From IMG/VR virus record IMGVR_UViG_3300047550_003584, positions 12,777-76,776 of that record: a DNA stretch of 64,000 nucleotides. One strand, 5' to 3'. The translations under genes were made by a program, and so were the position numbers. Under the pieces are notes generated by a model. It searched no databases, was not told where the DNA came from, and saw nothing but the letters and a program-made list of their open reading frames with translations. The DNA comes from a virus. Within the stretch, counting starts at the first letter, position 1; each line of letters begins with the position of its first letter. Below are positions 3,791 to 25,942 of this stretch, one piece after another.

Positions 3791-3815
3791 CGTCAAGCTG
3801 GACGTTAAACGCAGC
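3791..3815 (+). repeat. Family A pseudoknot-type element (A1, divergent)
   Basis: CGTC-AAGCTG-GACG-TTAAAC-GCAGC; loop GCTG pairs with downstream CAGC. Confidence 0.7.
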
Positions 3816-8779: not shown

Positions 8780-8797
8780 CAGCCGACCAGGGGGACT

Positions 8798-10191: not shown

Positions 10192-10192
10192 A

Positions 10193-10867: not shown

Positions 10868-10872
10868 TTAAT

Positions 10873-10901
10873 CGTCCTGGACATGACGTTAAACTGTCCA
10901 G
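10873..10901 (+). repeat. Family A element (A2)
   Basis: CGTC-CTGGACAT-GACG-TTAAAC-TGTCCAG. Confidence 0.85.
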
Positions 10902-10920
10902 TTCAATTACATTTTGCCCA

Positions 10921-11220
10921 ATGGAAATCAATTCTCCAACACCTCCTTTAGATCTTGTCAATGATTGGATGACGCATTGGTATGACGACAACCAAACAGA
11001 TGAACTGCAATATGTGTACGTTACAAACAAAGCTGCAATGTGGGGTGCCATCTGGGGTGCTACCAATGCTTTGGAAACAGCTATCAAAGACACGGCACCT
11101 GTTCATTGGCGTGTAGCAGGTGGCGCAGAAGATGGCCAACAGGTAGTGCGTGTTATTGATCTAATGGAATGGCTTGAACAATTCCGCAAAGAATACGAAG
11201 AAAAGATGTCTTGTAATTAA
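10921..11220 (+). CDS. Divergent/chimeric member of the TPP..LV..W / AA.WGA family
   Basis: TPPLDLVNDW...KAAMWGA, then an unrelated C-terminus. Confidence 0.75.
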   Translation: MEINSPTPPLDLVNDWMTHWYDDNQTDELQYVYVTNKAAMWGAIWGATNALETAIKDTAPVHWRVAGGAEDGQQVVRVIDLMEWLEQFRKEYEEKMSCN

Positions 11221-11225
11221 TCAAC

Positions 11226-11253
11226 CGTCCTGGACATGACGTTAAACTGTCCA
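11226..11253 (+). repeat. Family A element (A3), identical to A2 over 28 bp
   Basis: CGTCCTGGACATGACGTTAAACTGTCCA. Confidence 0.85.
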
Positions 11254-11280
11254 TTCCACCACACACCACCACACCATGCA

Positions 11281-11823
11281 ATGAAACCTAGGCCACTTCC
11301 ACCTGTTGACTACTTGCAACAAATGTTTTATCTAGATACAACATCTCCTAGTGGTTTACGTTGGCTTAAAGCGCCAAGTGCCTGGACCAAAGCTAACTCT
11401 GTTGCAGGTGTTCAACGTACTAAAGATCATTACTGGCGTGTTCGCTGGAAGTATCAAGGTAAAGCGGTGGATTACATGGCTCATCGGATTGTGTATGCAC
11501 TACAACATGGCTCTGATCCAGGGGATATGTTCGTAGATCATATACACAATGACAAAGACAACAACAAACCATTGCGATTGGCTACTAAATTACAAAACTC
11601 ACATAATCGTAACGGTCGCAAAAACACAAGCAGCATTTACAAAGGTGTCTGTTTAATTAAAGCGACTGGTCGATGGCGTGCATCCATTCGTGTTGATAAA
11701 CAATTCAAACACATTGGTGTGTACGCAACACAAGAAGAAGCAGCCTTGGCTTACAACCAAGCTGCTTTGCTAAACTTTGGTGAGTTTGCTCGCCTTAATC
11801 AAATCAATTCAACCGAGAACTAA
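11281..11823 (+). CDS. HNH endonuclease with AP2 domain
   Basis: AHRIVY..VDHIHNDKDNN..LRLAT..QN..N; YKGV..WRASI..IGVYATQEEAALAYN. Confidence 0.92.
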   Translation: MKPRPLPPVDYLQQMFYLDTTSPSGLRWLKAPSAWTKANSVAGVQRTKDHYWRVRWKYQGKAVDYMAHRIVYALQHGSDPGDMFVDHIHNDKDNNKPLRLATKLQNSHNRNGRKNTSSIYKGVCLIKATGRWRASIRVDKQFKHIGVYATQEEAALAYNQAALLNFGEFARLNQINSTEN

Positions 11824-11825
11824 TC

Positions 11826-13562
11826 ATGCAATTTGCTCTACCATCTAATCTGCAAACTGAACTGATTGCCTATGATCCAACGCTCAAGGTGTTGGCTAAG
11901 CAAGCTAACAAACCTGCAGCCAAGAAACCTACATATCCACTTGGCAAGATTCCTTGCTTGATACCAACGCATATTGTGCGTGAAGCTGATCAGCAAGATG
12001 TAATTGCTCAGATCAATCAGCGTCCAGCACCACAGCGTTATCAAGTGTTTACTACGCCTGTAGATGTAGCAACACCACAGGCTAGGCTTAAGGTCATTGC
12101 CATCCTGTATCACTACGAACAAGTGTGGTATGCAGCATGGCTACCTTCTAAAAAGGAGAAGGATGATTATGTGTTTGGTCATGCATATGCATTCAAGAAC
12201 ACATCAACTACACATAAAATTGCGCCAACTTGGATATGGAATAGTAAAGATGATTGCGTTGTCCACGACATTGGTCGTGGCTCACAACTCTTTGTGCATA
12301 GCAAAGTTGTAACTAAAGCAGATATCTGTGGTCAAAACTATGATAGCTGGCGTAGTTATCCATGGCGAGCAGGTAACCTTTACTGCCAGAAGGGTTATAC
12401 AATTCGTGACAATGTTGTTACTGAATTTGATAACAGCCTAAGGGAAGATCTCCCAACATGGGAGGATTCACGTGGATTGTTTGACAGAATACGCTGCAAG
12501 AATATCTTTGATGCAGCAGAAATACCGTCAATGATGTCAAAACATCTTGACGAAACTCAAGGCTTGACTGTTGATAACTTCATTGCTGGTTCACTTGCAT
12601 TCAAAGAAGAGCATGGTTATAGCTCCATAACATACTCTATTGTCACGAGGATTCAGCACATTGTCGCTAAACCTACTATCAAGAAACTATTGCAAGCAGA
12701 GTTGAATCGTAGTATTGATGCATACAATGATCCTAATAACAAACATCAGCAACCTATTAAGCAAGGCTTTTTAACTTTTGTACAGATTCTTAACTCAATT
12801 GAGTGGATCAATAACATTTGGCCAGACTGCCCTATTGATTACTATCAGACTTACTTCAAGGAACTCAAGTATCTTCGCTTGACTGAAGTACGTGTACGCA
12901 ACGGAGCTACACAAGAACCTTGTTTAATTAATTGGTTACGTGCGCACATGCCTATTGCATCATTGTTTACAATCATGCGCAAGTACTTGGATAGACAACT
13001 TACTGAATACAATGGTCGCTGGGTTGATAGTGATGTTGGTTACCAGCGTCAACGCTTTGGTGAACTAAACGATACATTCTCCATGATGAGTAAGATCTTG
13101 GATGCAGGTAAAACACTAGAGCCACCAAAGCGTTGGCGACTGACTGAGTTCCATGACTACGTGCAATCTGAGGCATGGAAGATTGAGAATCCAAAGGAAT
13201 CTTTACGGCAAGATTTATTCCCTGAACCTATTAAAGTCAAGCGTCTTGATAATGTATGGACATTCTTCCAGCCTATTGATACACATCAACTATCTATGTG
13301 GGGTCAAGCCGTACGCAATTGCGTTGGCTCTGCATCCCACTATGCGGATGACATCAAGAAACGTAAGCACTTCATTGTGCTGTGCATGATTGATAGCAAG
13401 CCCACCTTCACAATTCAATTGGTTGTGGACCAGGGCATGATGTCTGTCAAACAGATTGCTGGTGTTGGTAACCAGCGATTGACTGACGACCAACGTGAAG
13501 CTTACACAGAAGCTTTCCGTGAGGTCTTGCAGCAACGCGAGAAACAGCTAGCATGTAGCTGA
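11826..13562 (+). CDS. PcfJ-domain protein
   Basis: C-terminal FHD..., QPIDTHQLSMWGQAVRNCVGS..Y...TFTIQL...QIAGVGN pattern typical of PcfJ-like domains. Confidence 0.7.
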   Translation: MQFALPSNLQTELIAYDPTLKVLAKQANKPAAKKPTYPLGKIPCLIPTHIVREADQQDVIAQINQRPAPQRYQVFTTPVDVATPQARLKVIAILYHYEQVWYAAWLPSKKEKDDYVFGHAYAFKNTSTTHKIAPTWIWNSKDDCVVHDIGRGSQLFVHSKVVTKADICGQNYDSWRSYPWRAGNLYCQKGYTIRDNVVTEFDNSLREDLPTWEDSRGLFDRIRCKNIFDAAEIPSMMSKHLDETQGLTVDNFIAGSLAFKEEHGYSSITYSIVTRIQHIVAKPTIKKLLQAELNRSIDAYNDPNNKHQQPIKQGFLTFVQILNSIEWINNIWPDCPIDYYQTYFKELKYLRLTEVRVRNGATQEPCLINWLRAHMPIASLFTIMRKYLDRQLTEYNGRWVDSDVGYQRQRFGELNDTFSMMSKILDAGKTLEPPKRWRLTEFHDYVQSEAWKIENPKESLRQDLFPEPIKVKRLDNVWTFFQPIDTHQLSMWGQAVRNCVGSASHYADDIKKRKHFIVLCMIDSKPTFTIQLVVDQGMMSVKQIAGVGNQRLTDDQREAYTEAFREVLQQREKQLACS

Positions 13563-13613
13563 GTCCGCACGGCTTACCAGCCTTAGCCTCGATACTAGGG
13601 CTGGTTTCTACCC

Positions 13614-13835
13614 ATGACTGACTACACCGACGATCAGCTACTTGCCATGGCTATGGCCAACATTGGTGAGTACATCACGGACAACTCACCACAGTACATC
13701 TTGATTGAAGAAGATCCTCGCAATGAGGATGATTACGATAGCTGGACTTACGGAATGGAAGTCCTACCTCAAGACCACACTTGGCAGTCAGATTCAATTG
13801 ACGTAAGTCCAAGTGATGCAGACATGGCGGAATAG
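13614..13835 (+). CDS. Small acidic protein; stop codon lies inside tRNA-Leu
   Basis: 73-aa ORF; TAG at 13833-13835. Confidence 0.7.
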   Translation: MTDYTDDQLLAMAMANIGEYITDNSPQYILIEEDPRNEDDYDSWTYGMEVLPQDHTWQSDSIDVSPSDADMAE

Positions 13836-13903
13836 GTAGACGCAACGGACTTAAAATCCGTAGGCCATTGGCCGTGAGAGTTCAAGTCTCTCTGTCTGTA
13901 CCA
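13818..13903 (+). tRNA. trnL: tRNA-Leu(UAA) with encoded CCA
   Basis: GCAGACA/TGTCTGT acceptor, ACGGA-CTTAAAA-TCCGT anticodon arm, long variable arm, GAGAG-TTCAAGT-CTCTC T arm, ACCA. Confidence 0.95.
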
Positions 13904-13924
13904 ACCCACAATCAATTCAAAACC

Positions 13925-14287
13925 ATGCAAATCTTTGCAGCTTTCAAGCACATCATCCCTGAGTTCCATGCATTCAGTGATGAAGACAAGCGTTACAACA
14001 TTGGTGCTACTTGGACTGATGGCGATGGCTTGCGTGACTTCCACAATCTTGAGATGCGGTATGTCCGTAACTCAGAGCGTCTTGCTCTCCAAGGGGAGCC
14101 TCAACCTGATGGGTCATGGAAGTACGTAGAGCCCAACGGCAACACGCATGTCATCTCAGCGGACCGTGCACGTCACTTCATGGAGACGACTCAAGCTCAT
14201 GCCAGCATGATGTGTGACATGCTTGAACGCCTCAAGAAGGCTGGTCTCTATGACAAGTTCATTGACACTGAAGCCAAGCCCGCCTAA
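13925..14287 (+). CDS. Hypothetical protein
   Basis: MQIFAAFKHIIPEF... Confidence 0.75.
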   Translation: MQIFAAFKHIIPEFHAFSDEDKRYNIGATWTDGDGLRDFHNLEMRYVRNSERLALQGEPQPDGSWKYVEPNGNTHVISADRARHFMETTQAHASMMCDMLERLKKAGLYDKFIDTEAKPA

Positions 14288-14305
14288 GCTTACAACGGAA
14301 TGTTC

Positions 14306-14333
14306 GGCCCCTGCGCAAGCGGGGGTCTTTCTC
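14306..14333 (+). terminator. Rho-independent terminator
   Basis: GGCCCCTGC-GCAA-GCGGGGGTC-TTTCT. Confidence 0.65.
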
Positions 14334-14334
14334 T

Positions 14335-14658
14335 ATGACAAACGACACCATTGATCTTGATCTTGTTGACAAAACAATTGAGTTGATACCAGAGAGAGCT
14401 TGGTCTCAGGTAAGACAAACGATTGTTACAGCCTTGGTTGACAACATGCCGGGGTCTGTAGTTGAACGTTTAACTGGTTCTTATGATGACTTTGATCAAG
14501 CAGAAAAATTTTTATTTGATTACTACGAATTGCCTCAAAAGAAATGTGAGTTAATTATTGATTCATTTAAGATCATGGGCGCATTTAATTGCCTTGAACT
14601 ACTAAATACATTGAACCTATCTGCTGAAGATGGTATTTCAGAAACCAATCCTTCCTAA
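14335..14658 (+). CDS. Hypothetical protein
   Basis: 107-aa ORF. Confidence 0.75.
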   Translation: MTNDTIDLDLVDKTIELIPERAWSQVRQTIVTALVDNMPGSVVERLTGSYDDFDQAEKFLFDYYELPQKKCELIIDSFKIMGAFNCLELLNTLNLSAEDGISETNPS

Positions 14659-15034
14659 TTGTCCTCAATGTAATCAACCTGCACTCAAAATTATTGATTC
14701 AAGAAAGACTGGTTTATCCACCAGGCGTCGCAAAGAATGTGAATGCTGTAGCTACAGGGTTACAACCCATGAAGTAACAGCAGACTTCTTTGAAGAAGCT
14801 AAGCGCAATCTCTATCTTGTTGAACAGTTTCACAAACTTATGACAAATCAACCACTCACATCCGGGGTGGAACCACCCCCGTCTGGAGTGAGTGCATCTG
14901 AATTCAAGGCACTCAACAAATGCAGTGACTGCCAGCACAACATTGATGGTTGTCACTGTGCCTTTGACTTTCCTGAGTACGACACTGCTGAGTCGTACGA
15001 CTGCAATCACTTTCAACTTTGGAAATCGAAATGA
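14630..15034 (+). CDS. NrdR-like zinc-ribbon protein (no ATP cone)
   Basis: CPQC..IIDSR..RRRKECECCSYRVTTHE, plus a C-terminal Cys cluster. Confidence 0.75.
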   Translation: MVFQKPILPNCPQCNQPALKIIDSRKTGLSTRRRKECECCSYRVTTHEVTADFFEEAKRNLYLVEQFHKLMTNQPLTSGVEPPPSGVSASEFKALNKCSDCQHNIDGCHCAFDFPEYDTAESYDCNHFQLWKSK

Positions 15035-15378
15035 CACAAGAACATCCCATTACCCCACCGCCTGAGCTGGTGCGACAGTGGCTTGGTGAGTTCTTCGGCT
15101 GCACGGTTAGCGGTGAGCTGAGTGATTCAGAGCGTTTTCTTGCCACCCGCGCCGCCCAATGGGGCGCGGACAAGGAGCTTTTGGCTTGTGGCAACTACCT
15201 CAAACAGTGCGCTGTATGGGAAGAAGAGGATGTGACCGAGTTCTATAACTATCGCCGCCCCAAGCCACCGAGCTTGAAAGAGCAAGCGCTAAAAGAGATA
15301 AAAGAACTTGCGCGTGAAGCTGTTACAGGCTGTAATCTTGACATTCTGGAACGCGCTATTAAATCAATTCCTGATTAA
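15031..15378 (+). CDS. Modular MTQEHPITPPPELV family protein, copy 2
   Basis: Paralog of 17397-17729. Confidence 0.85.
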   Translation: MTQEHPITPPPELVRQWLGEFFGCTVSGELSDSERFLATRAAQWGADKELLACGNYLKQCAVWEEEDVTEFYNYRRPKPPSLKEQALKEIKELAREAVTGCNLDILERAIKSIPD

Positions 15379-15382
15379 TTCC

Positions 15383-15685
15383 ATGACAACCAAACGCCAG
15401 TACGACTACACCATTGGGGATCGCGTAGCAGAGCGTCCCAAAGCGCATGGCATTTTTGCTGTACGCAATGAAACTAAAGAACGCATCCAGCAGTACAGAA
15501 GCCAACGCTATGGCACTGTTGTTGGTATCAACTTAAAACCAAACAAGTCAGGAGCTAAGCAGAAGTTTTTGCTTGTGAAATGGGATCACCTCAAGTCACC
15601 CACTGAACATGCACAGATGAGGATCTGTCCTGCTGATCAGCTCCAGCGGTTACAATCTGAAGGCTATGGCTTTGAGGTAGAGTGA
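15383..15685 (+). CDS. Hypothetical protein (SH3-like)
   Basis: YTIGDRVAE...RYGTVV...LVKWD. Confidence 0.75.
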   Translation: MTTKRQYDYTIGDRVAERPKAHGIFAVRNETKERIQQYRSQRYGTVVGINLKPNKSGAKQKFLLVKWDHLKSPTEHAQMRICPADQLQRLQSEGYGFEVE

Positions 15686-15891
15686 TAAATCACAGAACTA
15701 GCATGATTTTTCAGGCTATTGCGTGGGGTTTAATCTTTGGAACATTCATTGTACTTTTTATTGCAATGATCTTTGATACGCCAGAGACAACTAAGGAAAA
15801 ATTCAAAGTTGTTGACAGCTACAAAGGTTGCGATATTGTTCAGTACACTGATCCATCTCAGCGTTACCAGTACTTCCTGCACTGCTCATGA
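15682..15891 (+). CDS. Small membrane protein
   Basis: TM plus FKVVDSYKGCDIVQY...YFLHC, a common cyanophage motif. Confidence 0.75.
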   Translation: MINHRTSMIFQAIAWGLIFGTFIVLFIAMIFDTPETTKEKFKVVDSYKGCDIVQYTDPSQRYQYFLHCS

Positions 15892-16526
15892 ACGTACAAC
15901 TTACTTGGGCAACGCCCAATGCAGAAGAAATGATCGTCAAGATGGCACGAGTTTCTGCACCCAAGAACCAAGACAACATGGATACAGCTTTACGGTTGTT
16001 ACGGTATCTGATCAAGCATTCCCACTGGAGTCCGTTTGAGATGGCGGGGATGTGTGTAGAGATTGAAACCACGCGTGCAATCTCACAACAAATTCTTCGT
16101 CATCGGTCATTCTCATTCCAGGAATTTAGTCAGCGTTATGCAGACACCAATGAACTGGGCTCAGCTGTTATTCCACATCTACGTAGACAAGATCAAAAGA
16201 ACAGGCAAAACAGTATTGATGACTTATCTCCTGATCTTGTTGGTAATTATTATCGACGCATTAGTGAACTGTACGAGAACTCAGAACATCTGTATCGTGA
16301 GATGGTAAGCAATGGTATTGCTAAAGAATGTGCTAGGTTTATTTTGCCACTTTCGACACAGACCCGTTTGTTCATGAACGGTACACTCAGATCGTGGATC
16401 CACTATCTTGATCTTCGTTGCTCCAATGGAACCCAACTCGAACACCAACAAATTGCCAGAGAAATCAAAAGAATCTTCTGCAAAGAATTCCCCATCATTG
16501 GAGAAGCAGCCTTTGCAGAAGACTGA
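15888..16526 (+). CDS. thyX: Flavin-dependent thymidylate synthase
   Basis: HWSPFE, RHRSFSFQEFSQRY, ARFILP, LRSWIHYLDLR. Confidence 0.97.
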   Translation: MNVQLTWATPNAEEMIVKMARVSAPKNQDNMDTALRLLRYLIKHSHWSPFEMAGMCVEIETTRAISQQILRHRSFSFQEFSQRYADTNELGSAVIPHLRRQDQKNRQNSIDDLSPDLVGNYYRRISELYENSEHLYREMVSNGIAKECARFILPLSTQTRLFMNGTLRSWIHYLDLRCSNGTQLEHQQIAREIKRIFCKEFPIIGEAAFAED

Positions 16527-16658
16527 TGAACTTAAGCAGTGGCGATCAGAAGGTCGCGGCGCTTTGTTTTTTTAATTCAGTGGTGGCATGCTTGGACTCC
16601 ACATCCTTGCGTGCCAGCTTTTTCCGTTTGTCCACCAGGTAGACGATCAGTGCTTTGT

Positions 16659-16811
16659 TCATTCGATTTGTCCTCCAGTGACGTAAGGAAAGTAGCAGAT
16701 GTTACGGTAAGTCAGGCAAAGCCAGGGACGGTGGGCTAAGTTCCACCAAGCTCTGTCTTTTTGAGCCTGCTCCTCTTGGTTGTACTTGCAACCACGATAC
16801 GTTAACGTCAT
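16659..16811 (-). CDS. DUF4278-like small protein
   Basis: MTLTYRGCKY...LTYRNICY; two (L)TYRGxxY-type repeats; isolated minus-strand gene. Confidence 0.7.
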   Translation of the reverse strand: MTLTYRGCKYNQEEQAQKDRAWWNLAHRPWLCLTYRNICYFPYVTGGQIE

Positions 16812-16818
16812 GGGTTCT

Positions 16819-16842
16819 GTATCTATTGATACGGAAAGTATA
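16819..16842 (-). promoter_or_regulatory. -10 box TATACT with adjacent NtcA-type site GTA-N8-TAC
   Basis: GTATCTATTGATAC at 16819-16832; TATACT (minus) at 16842-16837. Confidence 0.55.
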
Positions 16843-16897
16843 TGACGATTGATGTATGTGATGTTGTTCACCTTGTAACACAACACCAAACAATCTC

Positions 16898-17080
16898 ATG
16901 ACACTTCTTGTTAATCGAATGGATGATGATTGGAGCGAAGATTATCCAGATGAAATGTTTGAATTTGGATCTCAGTTTATGTACATGAGTGGCTATGACT
17001 CTTATCTAGATCTTGATTCGTTAATGGTTTTACTTTGGAAAATGAATCAACGTATTAAGGAGTTGGAAAACAAGCAATGA
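16898..17080 (+). CDS. Hypothetical protein
   Basis: 60-aa ORF. Confidence 0.65.
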   Translation: MTLLVNRMDDDWSEDYPDEMFEFGSQFMYMSGYDSYLDLDSLMVLLWKMNQRIKELENKQ

Positions 17081-17373
17081 AAGGTTTTGGTTCAACTCAA
17101 CAACCAACAAAGTCAGCATCGTATTGGATAGCTGCCTACACCAAAGACAATGAGGACGAACCGCTTGGCATTCACAAAAAAGTCTTGTCTTACAAACCAG
17201 GGCAAGACAAAGAACTCTTGATGATTCGTTACTGCAATTCAATCATGAAAATTAACAAAAACATATGGGAGATCCTGGTCCATCAAGGACCAGATGATAC
17301 CCCAGATTCTGGTGACCAAATTGTTTTGCGTTTATCCAGGGGGAAATTCAAGGGCTCTGCCCAAGTAAACTAA
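17077..17373 (+). CDS. Hypothetical protein
   Basis: MKGFG start typical of cyanobacterial/cyanophage small proteins. Confidence 0.75.
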   Translation: MKGFGSTQQPTKSASYWIAAYTKDNEDEPLGIHKKVLSYKPGQDKELLMIRYCNSIMKINKNIWEILVHQGPDDTPDSGDQIVLRLSRGKFKGSAQVN

Positions 17374-17396
17374 CTAGCCATTACCACTAATCACCC

Positions 17397-17729
17397 ATGA
17401 CACAAGAACATCCCATCACCCCACCGCCAGAGCTGGTGCAGCAGTGGCGAGAGCAGGCTCCGCGTTGCCGTGACAGTGGCATTGCTCGTGAAGACTGGCT
17501 GATAACGCGTGCCGCCCAATGGGGCGCCGACCAGGAGCTGGAGGCGTGCTGTGAGTGGCTGGAGGACTGGGTGGGCAATGACAGTTATGCAATCCCGATG
17601 CGGGCCGCCAGACGCCCCAAGCCGCCGAGCTTGAAGGAGCAAGCGTTGGCTGCTGCTGCTGAACTTGAAGGCTTTAAGGGCGTTGACATCATCCGCCGCG
17701 CCCTTGAACAACTACCCGACAACGAGTAG
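17397..17729 (+). CDS. Modular MTQEHPITPPPELV family protein, copy 3
   Basis: GC-rich; paralog of 15031. Confidence 0.85.
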   Translation: MTQEHPITPPPELVQQWREQAPRCRDSGIAREDWLITRAAQWGADQELEACCEWLEDWVGNDSYAIPMRAARRPKPPSLKEQALAAAAELEGFKGVDIIRRALEQLPDNE

Positions 17730-17743
17730 TCACCTTCTTTAAT

Positions 17744-17771
17744 GGACCTGAGTATGTCCCTAAACTACTCA
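17744..17771 (+). repeat. Family A element (A4)
   Basis: GGAC-CTGAGTAT-GTCC-CTAAAC-TACTCA; compensatory changes in both stems. Confidence 0.85.
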
Positions 17772-17806
17772 TTAGTTTTTCTTATCATTCACTTCAACTC
17801 AACACC

Positions 17807-18571
17807 ATGAAACTCCTCAAGTTTTCCACCGGCAATGGCAAGCTCAAGAATCGTTTGATCTTCAATTTGCCTGCTGGGTACGCATGCCCTCACGCTGGTG
17901 TGTGCAAGACCTTTGCTGATCGCACCACAGGGCAGATCACTGACTTGCCTCAGTACACAGGCGTGACGGCAACACAGGACTTCCGTTGCTTTGCTGCCAT
18001 GGCAGAGACACGTCCTGCCGTACGGGAAGCACGTTGGTACAACTGGGATCTGTTGCGTGAAACTATTCACATGAATGGGAACCAGGCTGTGCTATTGCGT
18101 GACCTGATCGACCTATCGCTCTTGATGCAACCAGTTAAAGAGTTGATTCGCATCCATGAGTCTGGTGACTTCTGGACTGAGAATTACATGCGAGCTTGGA
18201 TCATGGTGGCCCAAGGTCGGCCGCAACAAAAGTTTTACGCATACACCAAGTCTCTTGGCATGTGGTACAACTTGCGTGATATGATCCCATTCAATTTCTA
18301 TCTCACTGCATCGCACGGTGGCACACTCGACTACTTGATCGATAAGTATCCTGAGGTGTACCAGCGGGTTGCTTATGTTGTGTACACAGAAGAGGAAGCA
18401 GCAGAGCGTGGATTGCCCATTGATCACAGCGACAGTCATTGTTTAGGTGACAAACCGTTTGCGCTTTTGGTCCATGGATCCCAACGTGCTGGTTCTGATG
18501 CCATGGCTGCTATCACACAACGCAAGAAAGAAGGCAAGTTTGTAGGGTATAGCAAGAAGAATCGGGAATAA
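17807..18571 (+). CDS. GP88-like phage protein
   Basis: GNGKL..FNLPAGYACPHAGVC...CFA...RIHESGDF...FYAYTK. Confidence 0.75.
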   Translation: MKLLKFSTGNGKLKNRLIFNLPAGYACPHAGVCKTFADRTTGQITDLPQYTGVTATQDFRCFAAMAETRPAVREARWYNWDLLRETIHMNGNQAVLLRDLIDLSLLMQPVKELIRIHESGDFWTENYMRAWIMVAQGRPQQKFYAYTKSLGMWYNLRDMIPFNFYLTASHGGTLDYLIDKYPEVYQRVAYVVYTEEEAAERGLPIDHSDSHCLGDKPFALLVHGSQRAGSDAMAAITQRKKEGKFVGYSKKNRE

Positions 18572-18633
18572 TTCCGTAAGCACTTGCGGATCAGGTGAAA
18601 TCAGATATCATCTATCTGTCTTTCATCTGATCC

Positions 18634-18867
18634 ATGTCTTACGTAATTGCTTGTTGGCAATGGGGCAAAGCCCATGCCATCACTGCTAATAGTGAAACCA
18701 ATAAGTTTGAGTTGATTCCACTAGACTCTGATGTAGCTTTAAACAAGATCTTGTCGCTTCCGTATCGTGCGGGTGCACAGCAAATCTTGAAGTGGATCAA
18801 CAGTAACGATGAAGACCTTGCCTGTAAAGAACTCTCAATTCAAGATGAAGCCCGCTTCCGTAAGTGA
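18634..18867 (+). CDS. Hypothetical protein
   Basis: 77-aa ORF directly after a long hairpin. Confidence 0.7.
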   Translation: MSYVIACWQWGKAHAITANSETNKFELIPLDSDVALNKILSLPYRAGAQQILKWINSNDEDLACKELSIQDEARFRK

Positions 18868-20668
18868 TAAGTTCTACGTCTTTGACTTGGAATCTGATGG
18901 TCTTTATGACAAGGTTACTAAGATCCACTGCATTGTCATCCATGACATCACCGGCCAACAAACTTTTAGCTATGGGCCTGATCGCATTGCTGATGCTATT
19001 GCTCATCTGGCAACCGCTGATGTTTTGATAGGTCATAACCTGCTTTTTTTCGACATTCCTGTTCTGCAAAAGTTGCATTCATTTGACTGCAAAACACGCA
19101 TCATTGACACACTCATCTGTACACGATTGATCTGGCCCAAGGAAAAACTCTATGACCTTGACATTGAACAATATCCGCAGGTTCCACCGAACCAGCGAGG
19201 TGCCGCATCACTTAAGGCCTGGGGATGGAGGTTGGCCGATCATAAGATCAGCTTCAAAGACTTCTCCACATATTCTCAGGAGATGTTGGACTACTGTATC
19301 CAAGACGTTGCAGTTACTACAAAACTCTGGGAGCATATCACCAAACAGAACTATCCAGAGCCAGCGCTCAAGCTTGAACACGACTTTGCTTTGGCGATTA
19401 ACAAACAAATTAGAGCAGGCGTTCCTTTTGATGTGGATGCAGCTCTTGATCTTGTGGATGATCTCCGAGCAAAAGAAGCACAACTTGAGCCACAGCTAAA
19501 GGAAATCTTTCCTCCAATCAAACACAGCACATGGTTTACCCCTAAGGTAAACAACACCAAACGTGGTTATGTCAAAGGAGTTCCATTTGAAAAAATACGA
19601 TACGAAGAATTCAATCCTGGATCTCGTGACCAAATTGCTGATCGCCTTAAGAGTAAGTACGGATGGCAACCAGAAAAATTTACTGCGAAAGGAAATCCAG
19701 TCGTTGATGATGAAGTGTTAGAGCAGTTGCCTTATCCGGAGGCAAAAGCTTTGGCAGAATACATGCTTGTCAAGAAACGTCTTGGACAAATTGTTAATGG
19801 CAACAATGCTTGGCTCAAGTTGGTTAATAATGACAGCGGTCGCATGCACGGTGACGTTGTTACTAATGGTTGTATCACTGGTCGTTGTTCTCACCGATAC
19901 CCAAATATGGGTCAAGTTCCAGCGGGGTATTCGCCATACGGTAAAGAATGCCGTGCATTATTTCATGCACCGCAAGGGTGGGACATGATTGGCATTGACG
20001 CCAAAGCATTGGAGCTACGTTGTTTGGCTGGTTACCTTGCTTATTGGGACCAGGGGGAATATGCGCGTATCGTAACAAATCCTGAGATTGACATCCATGT
20101 GTATAACCAGGAACGTTTTGGTGTAGAGACTCGTGATATAAGTAAGAGGTTGCTGTACGCTGTATTATATGGCGCCGGCAATCTCAAAGCTGGTACCATT
20201 ATTAACCCGAAGGAAAAAGATGACGAAGTTCTCCGTCAACTAGGAAGAACTGCAATCAATTCATTCATGAAAGGTGTACCAGCTCTTAAATCACTCAAGG
20301 AAAAGATTGATGAAAACATTGGATCCAGGGGTTATCTCATTGGGCTTGATCGTCGTATTTTATATTGTCGCTCAGCTTTCAAAGGACTGAATGTTCTATT
20401 GCAATCAGCAGGTGCAATCCTGATGAAGCAAGTTGTTATTAACATTCACAACAACATTGAACAAAACCTTGGCTTGACCCACGGCAAGGATTGGGAGCAA
20501 GTCCTTATGGTTCATGACGAAGTGCAACTGGTTTGTAACCCACAGCACACGGAGCGCATCCGTGACCAGGCCATGGCAGCTTTCCCGCAAGCTCAGAAAT
20601 TCTTTGGGTTCCAATGCGAAATTGAAGGCGACTCTCGTGTAGGATCCTCGTGGGCTGAAACGCACTAG
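18845..20668 (+). CDS. polA: Family A DNA polymerase (T7 gp5-like) with 3'-5' exonuclease
   Basis: Exo FDLESDG, GHN..FDIP, YCIQDV; motif A DAKALELR, motif B RDISKRLLYAVLYGAG, motif C HDE. Confidence 0.97.
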   Translation: MKPASVSDKFYVFDLESDGLYDKVTKIHCIVIHDITGQQTFSYGPDRIADAIAHLATADVLIGHNLLFFDIPVLQKLHSFDCKTRIIDTLICTRLIWPKEKLYDLDIEQYPQVPPNQRGAASLKAWGWRLADHKISFKDFSTYSQEMLDYCIQDVAVTTKLWEHITKQNYPEPALKLEHDFALAINKQIRAGVPFDVDAALDLVDDLRAKEAQLEPQLKEIFPPIKHSTWFTPKVNNTKRGYVKGVPFEKIRYEEFNPGSRDQIADRLKSKYGWQPEKFTAKGNPVVDDEVLEQLPYPEAKALAEYMLVKKRLGQIVNGNNAWLKLVNNDSGRMHGDVVTNGCITGRCSHRYPNMGQVPAGYSPYGKECRALFHAPQGWDMIGIDAKALELRCLAGYLAYWDQGEYARIVTNPEIDIHVYNQERFGVETRDISKRLLYAVLYGAGNLKAGTIINPKEKDDEVLRQLGRTAINSFMKGVPALKSLKEKIDENIGSRGYLIGLDRRILYCRSAFKGLNVLLQSAGAILMKQVVINIHNNIEQNLGLTHGKDWEQVLMVHDEVQLVCNPQHTERIRDQAMAAFPQAQKFFGFQCEIEGDSRVGSSWAETH

Positions 20669-20670
20669 TT

Positions 20671-20847
20671 ATGAAACTCAACAAAGAGAACTCTGGTGTA
20701 GTTGCAAAAGCAATTGCATCTGCCATTATTGGCATTGTAATTTGGTGCGGTCTTAAATACGCATTTAATTTCACTTGGTTTCAAAGCTTTATGCTTGCTT
20801 GGTTGTATTGCATTCTTAGAGATTCAGTTATTCATTCCAAAGAATAA
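20671..20847 (+). CDS. Small membrane protein
   Basis: MKLNKENSGVVAKAIASAIIGIVIW..., two TM segments. Confidence 0.6.
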   Translation: MKLNKENSGVVAKAIASAIIGIVIWCGLKYAFNFTWFQSFMLAWLYCILRDSVIHSKE

Positions 20848-20851
20848 AGTT

Positions 20852-20879
20852 ACGTCCTAAGCATGACGTTAAACTGCTT
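20852..20879 (+). repeat. Family A element (A5)
   Basis: ACGTC-CTAAGCAT-GACGT-TAAAC-TGCTT. Confidence 0.85.
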
Positions 20880-20900
20880 TAACACAACCCTTTTGATCCG

Positions 20901-21716
20901 ATGAATTACGTTGATGTTTGCGCAATCCTGAACGAGAATCCTCGTCAGGTGTACACCAGTTCAACCACATTCAACTACTGCGCTGAAGTAACACTTCCGC
21001 CAGTTGGCAACAAAGCACCCACTATCCTTGTACTCAATGTTTACGGGAAAACCGGAGATGCTTTCCGATCCCTCAACAAAGGAGATCGGGTGTACATTCA
21101 CGGCTCCAAGCTACGGTTTGATCTCGAATCAAAAACGTACTCGCTCAATGGAGGAGTTGTTGCTCAAGTTACTGAAGCATTCCCTGTCTTCAACGACGTC
21201 ATCTTGACGGGACGTTGCATCAAAGACATTGATCAAACAGATGCACGTGCTTTCAAGACAACCGCAGATGGTTTGATGATTGCCAATCAAACACTCTCGG
21301 TAAACACTGGGCGCAACCAAGCTGATCTCTTTAACTTCTACGCAATTAACACGGCACAAGATAAGTTCAACCAAGCTGAACTTCTTGTGAACATGACGCG
21401 CAAAGGCACTGGTCTTACGATTCGTGCCAGGATTGTGACCGATGCCTGGACCGATAAAGAGTCCAATCAACGGCGCAGCGTCACCAAGTTGCAGCTTGTG
21501 CAGATGACACTGGCTCCCAAAACAAATGAGTCTCAGCCGAAACAAGTGACATCCCAAACAACTGTGGCATCCACAGAGAATGTTGCTAGCCTATGGGGCG
21601 GCAAGACCGTTGAGGAGTCCAGCGATCCCTGGAATGCAGGCCCCAACACTGGGCTGCCTGATCTCCCCGGTCAATACGGCAACGCACCTGAATTCAACGA
21701 CGAAGTTCCATTCTGA
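20901..21716 (+). CDS. ssb: Single-stranded DNA-binding protein with tandem OB folds
   Basis: Two SSB-like repeats (LNKGDRVYIHG; NDVILTGR...RKGTGLTIRARIVTDAWTDKES) and acidic tail FNDEVPF. Confidence 0.85.
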   Translation: MNYVDVCAILNENPRQVYTSSTTFNYCAEVTLPPVGNKAPTILVLNVYGKTGDAFRSLNKGDRVYIHGSKLRFDLESKTYSLNGGVVAQVTEAFPVFNDVILTGRCIKDIDQTDARAFKTTADGLMIANQTLSVNTGRNQADLFNFYAINTAQDKFNQAELLVNMTRKGTGLTIRARIVTDAWTDKESNQRRSVTKLQLVQMTLAPKTNESQPKQVTSQTTVASTENVASLWGGKTVEESSDPWNAGPNTGLPDLPGQYGNAPEFNDEVPF

Positions 21717-21970
21717 TGTCAACTCAACCTGAAGATCAGTTCACTCTCCTTTATGAGGATGGTAAACGAAAAGTTCTGCATGAGTTCCAGTGCATTGGCA
21801 CTGATGAAATTGTTGATGAGTTCATTAATTTCATGCGTGGTGTTGGGCATCTTGAGCTAAACATCATCGAGCGAATGTACGAAATCTCAAAGCAGTATCT
21901 TGCTTTGTACCAAGGGGAGCCAGCTATTCAGTTACCTCTCCAACAAGATGATCTTGAGAAAGTAGCTTAA
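21716..21970 (+). CDS. Hypothetical protein
   Basis: EIVDEFINFMRGVG motif. Confidence 0.75.
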   Translation: MSTQPEDQFTLLYEDGKRKVLHEFQCIGTDEIVDEFINFMRGVGHLELNIIERMYEISKQYLALYQGEPAIQLPLQQDDLEKVA

Positions 21971-21975
21971 CTTCC

Positions 21976-22002
21976 CGTCCTCTGGTACGACGTTAAACTG
22001 CC
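21976..22002 (+). repeat. Family A element (A6)
   Basis: CGTC-CTCTGGTAC-GACG-TTAAAC-TGCC. Confidence 0.75.
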
Positions 22003-22024
22003 TGTCCTTGACTACGAACTAACC

Positions 22025-23044
22025 ATGACTGCTTCAATGACTACTAAGAAAACCTCTGCACTTGCAACACGTGGGCTGGATTCCTTCAAACTTTTCCAAG
22101 ATAAAAAGTTTGTATCCGGATACCAGAATCTTGTCACCATCCAACCTCTCAACAAGTCCAAGATCCGAGGTTGGTTCGTGCGGAAGTCAGACCTTGATGC
22201 TTGTGGATGGAACGCCACTGAAGATCAATTTGCTAAGGGTTCAGTTATCTGGGACTACAAGCAAACTTTTGGTATGGCTCCCAACACTTCAATTGAAGAA
22301 GGACTCAATTTCATTGAGCCTCGTTTGCAAATCCTTTTGCGTTCTCCCCTCATGGTTGAGGAAACCACAGGGATGAGACAGACGATTGGAACCTTTGAGG
22401 ATCCAGATGTCAAAGAAATGTTTGATAACGACAAGGTTGCCGCTGATCTTGCCAACAGCAAAGGCGAGATGTATAAGCGTAAGTACAGTGTACGTACAAA
22501 GTACCTGGTCTACGTCTTGACCCAGGACAACAAACGTGCTCACAAGATTCCCATGGTGCTTACGCTCAAGGGTCTTAACGGCACCGACGTCAGCGACAAG
22601 GTCAAACTGTATGAAAAGGAAATGTCTAAGTGCTTGAGCAAAGCACTGGACTCTGAGGTACCTTTGGCATTCAACGAAAAGTTTTATGCCACCACAGTGT
22701 TTGCTCCCGTACTTGCCAACGAGATGCGTGGTGCAAACAATGTAGAGATTTGTGCTATCGAATCGTTTGAGATTCCTGATTACAGCTCTCAAGATGAAGC
22801 GATTACTTCGCTGAATCGCCTCAGCATTCCCGATGAAGATCGTGAATCAACCTGGAAGTTCCAGGAGATGTTCAGTGATTACATCAATCAACATGCACGA
22901 CAAGATGCACAAAAGCTCGGTGGTGCATACGGAATCAAAGAAGGAGTTGAGATCCTGCCTGTCTCTCGGACTACGGATACAGTTGATGTCAAGGCATTAC
23001 CTGCTCGTGATCCCCTGACTGGTGAGGATGCAGATCTGAGCTGA
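22025..23044 (+). CDS. Cyanobacterial DUF5895-like protein, possibly recombination-related
   Basis: PRLQILLRSPL...KYLVYVL..DNKRAHKIPMVLTLKG; next to ssb. Confidence 0.55.
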   Translation: MTASMTTKKTSALATRGLDSFKLFQDKKFVSGYQNLVTIQPLNKSKIRGWFVRKSDLDACGWNATEDQFAKGSVIWDYKQTFGMAPNTSIEEGLNFIEPRLQILLRSPLMVEETTGMRQTIGTFEDPDVKEMFDNDKVAADLANSKGEMYKRKYSVRTKYLVYVLTQDNKRAHKIPMVLTLKGLNGTDVSDKVKLYEKEMSKCLSKALDSEVPLAFNEKFYATTVFAPVLANEMRGANNVEICAIESFEIPDYSSQDEAITSLNRLSIPDEDRESTWKFQEMFSDYINQHARQDAQKLGGAYGIKEGVEILPVSRTTDTVDVKALPARDPLTGEDADLS

Positions 23045-23499
23045 TGACTAAAGCAAACACGTCTGTTGATTTGCTTGGAATGATTGACCCCTCCGGGGGT
23101 CTTTATTCCTGTTGGCCTTACATTGGTCGACGATGGCATCGAGATGGCTATGGTTATCCAAAGCGTAACCAAAAAGCAATTCTTGCTCATCGTTGGAGCT
23201 ACGAGCATCATTACGATGTTGAGTTAACTCCTAAGATTGTTATCCGACACAAATGTGATAACCCTGCATGTTGTAATCCTTTACATCTAATGCCTGGTTC
23301 TCAAGCCGACAACATCAATGACATGCATCAAAGAAAGCGCTGGAAGCCTGGGAGGCATCCTTTAACTTTAAATGAAAAGACTATTTGTCAAATCATTGAG
23401 TTAAGAAAACAGGGTTTATCGCAAGACAAAATTGCCAAGATTGTTGGTTGCTCTCAGCCAACAGTTGGTAAATACCTTTTGTTTTGCGACAGCCTGTGA
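23044..23499 (+). CDS. HNH endonuclease with C-terminal HTH
   Basis: CWPYIG..DGYG..AHRWSY..IRHKCDNPACCNPLHL..GSQADN. Confidence 0.92.
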   Translation: MTKANTSVDLLGMIDPSGGLYSCWPYIGRRWHRDGYGYPKRNQKAILAHRWSYEHHYDVELTPKIVIRHKCDNPACCNPLHLMPGSQADNINDMHQRKRWKPGRHPLTLNEKTICQIIELRKQGLSQDKIAKIVGCSQPTVGKYLLFCDSL

Positions 23500-23718
23500 T
23501 TAATCGTTGATAGCTGGGAGCTTATGAGAGTAATTATCTTTCATAAGCTCCATTGCATCAGCAACTAATCCTTTGATTGCAATCTGACGCTGCGTGGCAA
23601 TCTTGGTTAACAAGGTTGCCATTTCCTTTAGCTCACTCATTGAACTGCAATCATTAATGCTACGTATCATCTTCTCTTGCCAGAACATATCCTCTGGCGA
23701 CATTTCAAATTTCAACAT
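23500..23718 (-). CDS. NblA-like protein (picocyanobacterial type)
   Basis: MSPEDMFWQEKMIRSINDCSSMSELKEMATLL...QRQIAIKGLV two-helix pattern; own TAGAAT box. Confidence 0.55.
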   Translation of the reverse strand: MLKFEMSPEDMFWQEKMIRSINDCSSMSELKEMATLLTKIATQRQIAIKGLVADAMELMKDNYSHKLPAIND

Positions 23719-23797
23719 GTTATTCAATTGGTTCAGTTTATTCTACGCCTTCATTTAAACTTGACTTGATTCCACTGAATGTGTTAAGGATTACCAA

Positions 23798-24001
23798 ATG
23801 AAACCTGAAGACAAAGCCGCACTCAAGGTTGGTGGTGCCACGGCTCTCATCGTTGGTACCATTGCGTTTTGCGCACCAAACCCTGCTGCTTGGGCCGCTG
23901 TGATCTGGGGATCGTATAAGATGGGCAAGCAGGCCAGGGATCGAGAGATTGACCGGCAAGCCAAAAGACGTTGGTCAACTGACCAAGATCACTGCATCTA
24001 A
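23798..24001 (+). CDS. Small membrane protein
   Basis: Hydrophobic N-terminal half. Confidence 0.65.
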   Translation: MKPEDKAALKVGGATALIVGTIAFCAPNPAAWAAVIWGSYKMGKQARDREIDRQAKRRWSTDQDHCI

Positions 24002-24019
24002 CACCACACCATTCAACTC

Positions 24020-24964
24020 ATGACAACGCAACTTCAGCAACAAGAACTTAACGCTGCTCAGTCTCTGATCTACACACGTACTAACATTGGTCGTGCGTTC
24101 CAGGATTTTGATGACACCGAAATTGCTGGCATTTATCTGCGAGATGACAATTGTCTTGTGGTGCGTCGTGATGGTAGCGAGCAGGCTTACCCACGGGAGC
24201 TGATTAAGCTAGCCTTCACGAATTACACCAACCGTCTCAAAGATTTCTTTTCTTACCTTGGCCCTAATTATCGTGGCCCTAGTGTATGGCACAACAATGC
24301 TTACGTATTGTTTAAGGGCTGGAACTACACACACGCACTCGGACACCTGACTTCCAATGCAAAACTACAAGCTCACTGGGCAGACAAATTTATACACATA
24401 TCAGACGTTGCCAAAATCACAACCATCCTTCAGTCTGACCAAACGGACATTGGCCATTTGGTTGCGCCGGACGGGATGCGGCTTGCGAATCGGCCGATTG
24501 ATATGGACTCTGAACTGGACGATGGCACCAAACAAGACTCGATGTTTGGCGAACCTACATGCTCATGTGGGTCCTTTCAACGTCAGCTCAGTAACCTATC
24601 TTTTTTCCAAGAAGAGATCCAGGGATTTAAACCATGGTGCATCCACCTGAGTTGGTTTAACAAGTACCGTGAGCTGCTGTGCAAGCGCACAGATGCGCGT
24701 AACGCTAGTCCCAGTGGAACACCTGAGAAGTGTGTGGCATGGTTCTATGCACCGCCCAAAGACTCGGTCAGTGATGGACGTTTTGTTTTGTTGTATACCA
24801 ACCAAGGGGCACAAGCTCCGCTGACCCATTGGCGCAACTACAAACCTAACGAAGTGTTCACTCAACACCATGCATGGGATCTATTCTTCAATATGATGGA
24901 TGCGTCCTATGTGCCATTCCCTGGCATTGCTTTACCTCAACTCAAGTCTGCTATCAAGAAATGA
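24020..24964 (+). CDS. SWIM zinc-finger protein
   Basis: TCSCGSF...PWCIHL. Confidence 0.7.
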   Translation: MTTQLQQQELNAAQSLIYTRTNIGRAFQDFDDTEIAGIYLRDDNCLVVRRDGSEQAYPRELIKLAFTNYTNRLKDFFSYLGPNYRGPSVWHNNAYVLFKGWNYTHALGHLTSNAKLQAHWADKFIHISDVAKITTILQSDQTDIGHLVAPDGMRLANRPIDMDSELDDGTKQDSMFGEPTCSCGSFQRQLSNLSFFQEEIQGFKPWCIHLSWFNKYRELLCKRTDARNASPSGTPEKCVAWFYAPPKDSVSDGRFVLLYTNQGAQAPLTHWRNYKPNEVFTQHHAWDLFFNMMDASYVPFPGIALPQLKSAIKK

Positions 24965-25179
24965 CTGACGACATTCTTGAATACGCACGTCAATTAGCTA
25001 TGCGACCACGCAACGACACAATCATGGGCGACAAACGTTATGATCTTGAGATTCCAGAGGACACTCATTGGGAGCTTGTAAAGCTAGCTGCAGACCTTAA
25101 AATGCACCACGAAGACTACGCACAAAACGTATTAATTGGTCATGTTGAATCTGAACTGGATCGAAAAGCTCAAGCTTGA
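24961..25179 (+). CDS. Hypothetical protein (ribbon-helix-helix-like)
   Basis: YDLEIPEDTHWELVKLAADLKM. Confidence 0.65.
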   Translation: MTDDILEYARQLAMRPRNDTIMGDKRYDLEIPEDTHWELVKLAADLKMHHEDYAQNVLIGHVESELDRKAQA

Positions 25180-25360
25180 ATGTATTGATGAAGAAGATGG
25201 CACCATGTCCATCAACATTGAGTGGGATGAAAAAGATCCTGACCTTGACTACTGGACTTCTCTAGGTCCAGAAGGTCAAGAAGAATTTGTTCTCACTGCA
25301 CTGCGTGAAGCCTGTGCCTCTTACACTGACACCGAATCTTTTGATGATCATGTCGATTGA
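25136..25360 (+). CDS. Hypothetical acidic protein
   Basis: EEDGTMSINIEWDEKDP. Confidence 0.65.
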   Translation: MVMLNLNWIEKLKLECIDEEDGTMSINIEWDEKDPDLDYWTSLGPEGQEEFVLTALREACASYTDTESFDDHVD

Positions 25361-25751
25361 CACCTACGGCCTTAGTTCTGAGCAGTATACCGAGTTCTTC
25401 CATAAAAACTTGCGGTTTGCTGCCAAGCTTTACCTTGATACCTGCAACATCTTGAGCAGTGAAGGAGTCGGTAATATTGACTTCAAAACTGTCTCAGAGA
25501 TGTACCAGGAAACTGTATACACAACAAACGATGATTGTCGTCGTTACCAAAAGAGCAACAACCCTGAGGTATTGAAAGAAGTTACCGCTGATCTTTATGG
25601 TATTAGTCCCAGTAGGGAAGAGCTGATGGATGAGATTCAATCGCTTAGCGCCAAGGTGGAATCCCTTGTTGACTACATTGGTAACTTGGTCACTATCACT
25701 ACGGCAGGCCTTGAGGGTATTGCCACTACCCTTGATGACAAGGTAGACTGA
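25350..25751 (+). CDS. Hypothetical protein
   Basis: MSIDTYGLS..., coiled-coil C-terminus. Confidence 0.75.
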   Translation: MSIDTYGLSSEQYTEFFHKNLRFAAKLYLDTCNILSSEGVGNIDFKTVSEMYQETVYTTNDDCRRYQKSNNPEVLKEVTADLYGISPSREELMDEIQSLSAKVESLVDYIGNLVTITTAGLEGIATTLDDKVD

Positions 25752-25776
25752 GCACGCACAAACCCTGCAGAGTTGC

Positions 25777-25804
25777 CGTCCTGGTCATGACGTAAAACTG
25801 ACCA
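25777..25804 (+). repeat. Family A element (A7)
   Basis: CGTC-CTGGTCAT-GACG-TAAAAC-TGACCA. Confidence 0.85.
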
Positions 25805-25825
25805 CCACACCATCTCAGCTCAGTC

Positions 25826-25939: not shown

Positions 25940-25942
25940 GTC

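Follow-up and report, generated by a model that had tools for sequence, protein, structure and literature searches.

The 64-kb window analysed here (the whole stretch of DNA, out of a 76.8-kb IMG/VR virus record) comes from a lake cyanophage that is kin to the freshwater Synechococcus phage S-EIVl. Among its replication genes it carries seven copies of a short pseudoknot element, all of them intergenic and all on the gene strand (+). Six strong copies of 28-29 nt share one order of parts, S1 (first stem, 4 nt)-C-S2 5′ strand (second stem, 6 nt)-D-S1′-YWAAAC-S2 3′ strand, and the seventh is a hexaloop subtype. All seven sites described in the initial annotation of this DNA are present, and the loop/stem pairs quoted there are correct, including the switch to GGAC/GTCC at 17744; only the copy placed at 20852 had to be moved, as it starts at 20853. 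The copies are given below with their placement and, in bits, their score with the covariance model R1.

3791..3815, + strand: hexaloop subtype with shifted S2, CGTC-AAGCTG-GACG-TTAAAC-G-CAGC; within a non-coding stretch of ~300 nt; not detected by R1
10873..10900, + strand: CGTC C TGGACA T GACG TTAAAC TGTCCA; 5 nt past a stop codon, ending 20 nt before the ATG of a 99-aa open reading frame (ORF); 46.1 bits
11226..11253, + strand: core identical to the 10873 copy; 5 nt past a stop codon, ending 27 nt before the ATG (11281) of an HNH-AP2 endonuclease gene; 48.9 bits
17744..17771, + strand: S1 switched to GGAC/GTCC, S2 TGAGTA/TACTCA; 14 nt past the upstream stop codon, ending 35 nt before a GP88-like gene; 41.8 bits
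20853..20880, + strand: CGTC C TAAGCA T GACG TTAAAC TGCTTT; 5 nt past a stop codon, ending 20 nt before ssb; 45.5 bits
21976..22004, + strand: 9-nt loop, CGTC CTCTGGTAC GACG TTAAAC TGCCTG; 5 nt past a stop codon, ending 20 nt before a DUF5895-like gene; 24.3 bits
25777..25804, + strand: CGTC C TGGTCA T GACG TAAAAC TGACCA; 25 nt past the upstream stop codon, ending 21 nt before a 37-aa ORF (25826-25939) that precedes a Gp157-like gene; 46.1 bits

The distances from six copies to the next start (20, 27, 35, 20, 20, and 21 nt) agree with the ~20-35 nt originally estimated, and the downstream genes named at that time (HNH-AP2, GP88, SSB, DUF5895, and the 37-aa ORF with the Gp157-like gene) were confirmed. 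The motif GACGYWAAAC occurs six times in the window as compared with 0.49 times expected. A structure-aware scan picked out the six strong copies, with matches confined to the + strand, and reversed-sequence controls yielded none. A covariance-model search had been suggested as a check, and R1 recovered these six copies at 24.3-48.9 bits and missed the one at 3791; R1 carries S2 only, and copies with other loop lengths are missed by it. Because the same variant, CGTC-RAGCTG-GACG-TTAAAC-G-YAGC, recurs in six related contigs (L026, L029, L059, L072, L097, and L122), in one of which (L029) the stem is changed to a compensated CGCC/GGCG, the 3791 copy is a real, conserved subtype.

Two interleaved helices covary and fold as RNA

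Three to seven copies per locus or genome, at similar positions, are present in S-EIVl and in nine relatives that were identified through SSB, and the orthologue of the copy before ssb (20853) is retained in all relatives and in S-EIVl. In the 27 distinct copies from the relatives the pseudoknot is 93.7% paired, and its covariation score is 0.492 as compared with 0.188 in shuffled sequences (0/500 as high) and no more than 0.105 with slid partners. In the orthologues of the 17744 copy (L007, L009-L013, L037, L055, and L103), most have a C.A mismatch (TGAGCA/TACTCA) where the window copy has U-A.

A larger sample was obtained from IMG/VR with a pattern blind to S2 (CGTCCT-N5-W-GACG-YW-AAACT, with the S2 3′ strand excluded), which detected at least 117 stretches. 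Among the matches listed, 137 of 146 pair at five or six of the six S2 positions, and their 101 distinct sequences are 89.6% paired in S2, with 104 doubly changed cells and a covariation score of 0.556 versus 0.283 (0/500 shuffles as high; slid controls no more than 0.155). The outermost pair (U6-N28) is weak, and since it forms in just 62 of these 101 sequences, S2 is effectively a 5-bp helix. With selection blind to S1, all four S1 pairs were present in 155 of 163 sequences, which contain 16 different helices, among them CGUC/GACG, GGAC/GUCC, UGUC/GACA, AGUC/GACU, GGUC/GACC, ACAC/GUGU, CUAC/GUAG, and CAAC/GUUG. The compact H-type pseudoknot with compensatory changes in both stems that was first proposed from the window copies is thus strongly upheld by independent sequences, both from relatives and from over 100 contigs of IMG/VR. 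As S1 and S2 interleave and both are kept in every copy, the simplest reading is an H-type pseudoknot with a 1-nt first loop (L1) and a 6-nt A-rich loop that crosses the 4-bp S1. Minimum free energy z-scores of single copies ranged from -2.35 to +0.47 and are uninformative, since the folding program cannot model pseudoknots.

Mismatches in S2 identify the strand that folds. Among the matches listed in the S2-blind set, G.T outnumbers A.C by 74 to 8, and the gene-sense strand, i.e., RNA, must therefore be the one that forms the helix. In line with this orientation, both flanking ORFs lie on the strand of the element for 143 of 202 copies, and both lie on the opposite strand for only one. Two strong terminator-like sites of the window, at 14306 and 23086, bracket three of its copies, and the elements appear to sit inside long multi-gene transcripts.

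These data bear on the idea that the conserved letters act in DNA, as a promoter with TAAACT as the -10 box, as a palindromic operator (CGTC-N8-GACG), or as a joint for the recombination of modules. TAAACT does fit TAnnnT, depositors have labelled the site "promoter" in the S. aureus phietaviruses B166 and B122, and copies often flank exchangeable small genes. However, neither two interleaved covarying helices nor the G.T excess is expected of duplex DNA, and the sharp 5-nt floor past stop codons (see below) lacks a DNA-level rationale. If the 17-nt palindrome is taken as the promoter spacer, there is no -35 element, and no copy carries a sigma-70-like promoter match; the 25777 copy begins 28 nt past the end of the nearest match (25720-25749), and the region holds 16 promoter matches as compared with 29.7 expected from shuffles. 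A site for an NtcA-like protein (GTN10AC) was likewise rejected, as a protein site cannot account for the covariation of S2. Among the large ORFs of the window, which does not cover the first 12.7 kb of the genome, none was found to encode a phage RNA polymerase for which the element could be a signal. We therefore consider a DNA-level signal highly improbable.

The element resembles coremin, an Xrn1-resistant RNA

The literal strings GACGUUAAAC and ACGUUAAACU trace to a paper on coremin (PMC10520033). [quoted passage not shown] It reads GUCCGAAGACGUUAAACUAC and comprises a 4-bp hairpin (hp1, CGUC/GACG) with a YGAD or YGNNAD loop, the spacer UUAAACUAC, and then a second hairpin, hp2 (PMC6546385); loops of 7-8 nt are tolerated. 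Its mutational map shows that the loop-closing C-G is required (U-A is tolerated, G-C is not), that the other hp1 pairs can be swapped, that the outer pair is dispensable, with hp1 being 3-4 bp and mutation of that pair harmless, and that in the spacer the first two bases (U13U14) are tolerant while A15-A20, AAACU(A), are essential (PMC6546385). Without any protein (PMC6546385), coremin stalls the exoribonuclease Xrn1 one nucleotide upstream of hp1, and it also blocks scanning ribosomes, resists elongating ones, and promotes frameshifting (PMC10520033, PMC10321173). It has been modelled as an H-type pseudoknot like that of beet western yellows virus (BWYV), with a non-canonical S2, and variants with a Watson-Crick S2 have been found (PMC10321173).

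The phage element matches this description closely. Both have the conserved letters CGUCC...A-D-GACG-UUAAAC-U, and the phage element, like coremin, is small, probably works free of protein, and often occurs in several copies per genome. Among 129 unique phage copies, whose 4-bp hairpin is usually CGUC/GACG, the loop-closing C-G (pair 4-13) is present in 123, whereas pairs 1-16, 2-15, and 3-14 are swapped with compensation, the outer pair taking all four Watson-Crick types. The loop starts with Y and ends with A-D in both systems: in the phages C5 is found in every copy, even where the search did not require it, A11 in 126/129, and a base other than C at position 12 in 121/129. Likewise, within the spacer UUAAACU, positions 17-18 vary in the phages (Y, W) and AAACU is invariant (127-129/129); the base that follows is a purine, mostly G rather than A as in coremin. 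The initial annotation had judged the AAAC linker suited to the minor groove of S1, and this placement matches the published coremin model (PMC10321173).

There are also differences. The phage loop has 8 nt (C-U-NNNN-A-D) instead of YGAD or YGNNAD, a Watson-Crick S2 of 5-6 bp between the loop and the bases after AAAC stands where coremin has hp2, and the element lies between cistrons of double-stranded DNA (dsDNA) phages whose hosts have no Xrn1. The Watson-Crick S2 has a counterpart in xrRNA-WCC (Sanxia picorna-like virus 5 and selected variants; PMC10321173), which is also described by a BWYV-like H-type model and forms an antiparallel S2 in the same register: a loop A pairs with the U after AAAC (pair 7-19), and L1 is a single nucleotide, C in the phages. 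In xrRNA-WCC, however, S2 has 3 bp and is followed by hp2, whereas the phage S2 has 5-6 bp, hp2 is absent, and pair 8-18 does not form (D opposite C). From these comparisons of sequence, the element appears to be the bacteriophage form of the coremin fold, also called xrRNA-C (xrRNA, exoribonuclease-resistant RNA), and a new variant rather than a plain member of it.

Canonical coremin-type copies also occur alongside 8-nt-loop copies of the same loci, namely, in L156 (at 4116), in L180 (on the minus strand), twice in L118, and once in L218. Their loops are either a CGAA tetraloop (GGTC CGAA GACC TTAAAC T) or a CGAAAT (CGAAAU) hexaloop. We know of no solved structure for an xrRNA of the coremin class. 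No paper reporting coremin-like elements in phages was found in our search, which did not extend to the unnamed candidates of the 10,000-csRNA paper (PMC10690425).

Comparison with other known RNAs

Rfam contains no family for the element, as judged by searches of the whole window at gathering thresholds, of 10800-26000 and a 71-nt piece at E≤10, and of ten other loci. These searches returned just tRNAs, hammerheads, and one sub-threshold furovirus pseudoknot. The latter, RF01106 (SBWMV1_UPD-PKb), is the best Rfam match and agrees with the element in stem, linker, and the order of the parts (consensus CGcu[7]gCGUUAAACUGUAC), but the match scores just 14.9 bits (E = 2.4), far below the gathering score of 38 bits, and the family comes from the 3′ untranslated region of a plant RNA virus, where it lies beside a tRNA-like structure.

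The -1 frameshift pseudoknots of BWYV and luteoviruses and the gene 32 pseudoknots of phages T2 and T4 are likewise compact H-type folds, in which an L1 of 1-2 nt spans the deep groove of S2 and an A-rich loop occupies the minor groove of S1, and one copy of the phage element precedes ssb. Their conserved letters differ from those of the element, and several copies of the latter precede unrelated genes. A -1 frameshift or readthrough signal was rejected: there is neither a slippery heptamer nor an overlapping frame, the readthrough frame closes, and a stop codon lies 5 nt upstream. The phage-associated Pistol ribozyme (PMC4604425) also has a short P1, the loop of which engages in a 6-bp pseudoknot, and then UUAAA. 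Nevertheless, the P2, P3, and G-U cleavage site of Pistol are absent here, the pseudoknot strand comes directly after the linker, and no Rfam match was obtained at E≤10. Neither is the element itself a hammerhead.

An H-type topology with an A-rich tail and three conserved bases that might form a ligand layer make the element reminiscent of the preQ1-I riboswitch, and an aptamer for a small molecule was one of the roles that had been listed. An arrangement compatible with such a switch is seen in a GC-rich virus (L099, 4620-4800), where three tandem copies lie 74-75 nt apart, with a terminator-like CCCC...GGGG hairpin and a T run after each of the first two; these units could yield small stable RNAs. 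However, no riboswitch family of Rfam matched even at E≤10, and the junction is a single variable base as compared with a preQ1-I L2 of 4-6 nt with a ligand-pairing C, so membership in preQ1-I was rejected. Moreover, a genome carries five to seven copies in front of unrelated genes, and most copies have no expression platform, the RNA downstream being unstructured. A riboswitch thus seems extremely improbable.

The element is placed just outside ribosome footprints

Spacing was determined for 202 distinct copies. On the upstream side, the distance from the stop codon has a sharp floor (4 nt in two copies, 5 nt in 54, and 6 nt in 22, followed by a long tail). On the downstream side, the distance to the next ATG has its floor at 19-20 nt, and in cyanophages at least ~19 nt always separate a copy from the start codon after it. 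When a stop codon occupies the A site, the ribosome holds ~5 further nucleotides in its entry channel, and during initiation the 30S subunit covers ~20 nt on the upstream side of the start codon. Because both floors fit this geometry, the element appears to be positioned just outside the footprints of terminating and initiating ribosomes. The 30 nt that follow the element have less structure than control windows do. A T-rich run directly follows 27 of 269 copies as compared with two control windows.

This placement raises the question of whether the knot is directed at ribosomes, either by stopping sliding or scanning after termination and so uncoupling cistrons, or by resting on the 30S platform and acting there, at the 5′ edge of the ribosome-binding site, as an enhancer or a standby site. 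The match of both floors to the footprints favours such a role, as does the ability of coremin to block scanning ribosomes and resist elongating ones (PMC10520033, PMC10321173), and in phages whose genes have Shine-Dalgarno (SD) sequences the knot can abut the SD (L054, L093, L130, and L193). On the other hand, identical floors are expected of any structure that merely needs to stay folded, SD-like words are not enriched within 25 nt downstream (30 versus 38 in control windows), and copies also precede tRNAs and hammerhead ribozymes, with no translation start following. We regard a ribosome-directed function as unlikely.

The tRNA and ribozyme contexts are as follows. In the bacterial metagenome-assembled genome (MAG) contig L218, four elements on the minus strand (2154, 3136, 5096, and 5647 in + coordinates) each directly precede a type III hammerhead-like sequence, with the GUC cleavage site 6 nt past the knot; Rfam Hammerhead_3 was confirmed at 2089-2150 and 3071-3132, and L160 is arranged likewise. 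In Nostoc phage NMeng1 (L254, 1501-1606), a tRNA-like gene starts 3 nt past the knot, and in Mycobacterium phage Labelle (L255, ~1502-1787), a tRNA-Gln lies ~185 nt downstream of it.

If RNase E, RNase P, or a ribozyme were to cut just downstream, the knot might instead cap the upstream message and leave a tail too short for 3′ exonucleases. Such protection of 3′ ends would agree with the commonest position of the element, 5-6 nt past the upstream stop codon (76/202), with the hammerheads that cut 6 nt past the knot (L218, L160), and with the tRNA of NMeng1. Against it, the known relatives of the element are directional blocks to 5′-to-3′ travel, and most copies, including all those of the window, have no recognisable downstream cleavage signal. 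In L099, furthermore, the terminator-like hairpins that follow the knots would form the 3′ end themselves. We consider 3′-end protection improbable.

The element is widespread in unrelated phages and prophages

The element is not confined to relatives of this cyanophage; unrelated phages and prophages that carry it number in the hundreds. Within the DNA compared, 63 of 127 motif-bearing viral loci have no detectable protein in common with this genome. Cultured carriers include 85 records of Staphylococcus phages as well as Nostoc phage NMeng1, Mycobacterium phage Labelle, Arthrobacter phage Molivia, phages of Moorella, Lactobacillus, Bacillus, and Microcystis, a crAss-like phage, and a Vibrio phage group. 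The hosts of the cultured carriers are mostly Firmicutes, Actinobacteria, and Cyanobacteria. When one genome per bacterial species was searched, 90 of 129 pattern matches, which included some in Chloroflexota and Selenomonadaceae, had a good S2; E. coli gave one weak match in 5,426 genomes. Flanking ORFs were scanned for four bacterial contexts: those of Enterococcus and Phytoplasma are prophage-like, that of Saccharibacteria resembles a mobile or defence element of another kind, and those of Poribacteria gave no family match.

Several of these loci have individual features. In seven Saccharibacteria MAGs (L133, L147, L159, L184, L188, L196, and L252), a near-identical copy recurs with the same 40 nt of downstream sequence; the copy in L133 lies between DUF7249 and DUF3768 genes, beside an AAA_13 ATPase. 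Staphylococcus phage SA13 (L253, ~1496-1530) has the element between its head-morphogenesis and scaffold genes, with CGAC/GTCG as S1 and TTTTTAT thereafter. A good copy in Vibrio phage D456 (L256, 299-326; TCTC C CGAGCA T GAGA TTAAAC TGCTCA) is antisense to both flanking small ORFs, and either these ORFs are miscalled or the copy is transcribed against them.

We also considered the element as an operator for a trans-acting protein, either a phage repressor comparable to gp32 or RegA of T4 or the host protein S1, that would unite replication genes in a regulon. Several copies do precede co-expressed replication genes, ssb among them, and the unpaired bases are conserved. Yet the 63 loci without a detectable protein in common with this genome keep the same letters, in phages of Staphylococcus and Enterococcus it is head genes that follow the element, and coremin needs no protein (PMC6546385). 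An operator therefore seems very doubtful; together with the DNA-level signal, it is hit hardest by the wide spread among unrelated phages and by the strand asymmetry.

Among the other features of the window are three tRNA genes, tRNA-Leu(UAA) at 13818-13903 (+), tRNA-Pro(UGG) at 31124-31195 (-), and tRNA-Cys(ACA) at 31282-31355 (-). The 37-aa ORF at 25826-25939 encodes a hydrophobic peptide (MFESLFAAVLPVLKDILW...) and is kept in relatives. The initial annotation also noted other intergenic structured repeats at 3352-10228, namely, a CTGGG...GTRTAAG...CCCAG stem, a two-state hairpin, and tRNA-minihelix-like units.

A putative roadblock to enzymes moving 5′ to 3′ on RNA

Blocking of 5′-3′ decay, a translational enhancer, an operator, and an aptamer had been listed as possible roles without a choice among them. 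The operator and aptamer lose ground because the element is found in phages with unrelated proteins and several copies precede unrelated genes, whereas a decay block gains real support from the near-identity of the element to the Xrn1-resistant motif coremin, which the initial annotation did not name. We favour, with a probability of roughly one half, a protein-independent, directional roadblock to 5′-to-3′ movement that shields the RNA downstream. Each copy would be transcribed within a long multi-gene message, and it folds into a 28-nt H-type pseudoknot, with an S1 of 4 bp (usually CGUC/GACG), C as L1, an S2 of 5-6 bp, one junction nucleotide, and YWAAAC along the minor groove of S1. An enzyme moving 5′ to 3′ on the RNA would be halted mechanically at the 5′ edge of the element, so that the downstream RNA, i.e., the next cistron or elsewhere a tRNA or ribozyme, outlives the upstream RNA. 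The spacing outside both ribosome footprints would keep the knot folded.

The first candidate target is RNase J, the 5′ exonuclease of the cyanobacterial host, although scanning RNase E, Rho, and ribosomes may also be stopped. This reading is favoured because three observations converge: coremin stalls Xrn1 and ribosomes; a flaviviral xrRNA also stops bacterial RNase J1 (PMC5760640), and folds of the xrRNA type thus appear to be general mechanical blocks; and in cyanobacteria RNase J is essential and active as a 5′ exonuclease (PMC12464536). The host range of the cultured carriers and the near absence of the element from E. coli also speak for it.

Several findings weigh against a roadblock. 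Xrn1 resistance of coremin needs hp2 directly after the spacer, whereas an hp2-like hairpin (at least 4 bp, 0-3 nt after the element) is not enriched behind the phage copies (56/274, as compared with 61 in shuffles and 84 in control windows). The second loop base of coremin is G, whereas position 6 is U in >90% of phage copies. The RNase J1 precedent comes from a flaviviral xrRNA and not from coremin. Pseudoknots of the BWYV type and of like size do not stop Xrn1, and shape alone therefore gives no resistance (PMC10321173). Where a hammerhead or the processing of a tRNA would cut next to the knot, cleavage would part it from the downstream RNA, and 3′-end protection therefore fits these contexts at least equally well. 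Finally, copies are present in a Vibrio phage group and in a crAss-like phage, whose hosts may lack RNase J.

Implications

To our knowledge, exoribonuclease-resistant RNAs are known just from eukaryotic viruses, where they counter Xrn1. Our analysis raises the prospect, to which we give somewhat less than even odds, that the coremin fold is a viral RNA module that crosses domains of life and that dsDNA phages and prophages use it widely, as a roadblock that needs no protein, against bacterial enzymes tracking RNA from 5′ to 3′, RNase J first, thereby splitting messages into parts with separate lifetimes. If so, one small fold would also be at work in bacteria, where its presumed target is RNase J, an enzyme unrelated to Xrn1, or the ribosome, and its spread would cover phages of Cyanobacteria, Firmicutes, Actinobacteria, Saccharibacteria, and others. 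The covariation seen in phages would expose an S2 that is cryptic in the coremin of plant viruses and so provide a direct structural model for that class of xrRNA, and hundreds of natural variants are available for working out the unsolved structure of coremin. The element represents an uncatalogued RNA family, which genome annotation either misses or labels "promoter". For phages, it would be a simple and general device for giving the genes of one operon differing stabilities, and for bacterial synthetic biology it would be a portable stabiliser or insulator of 28 nt.

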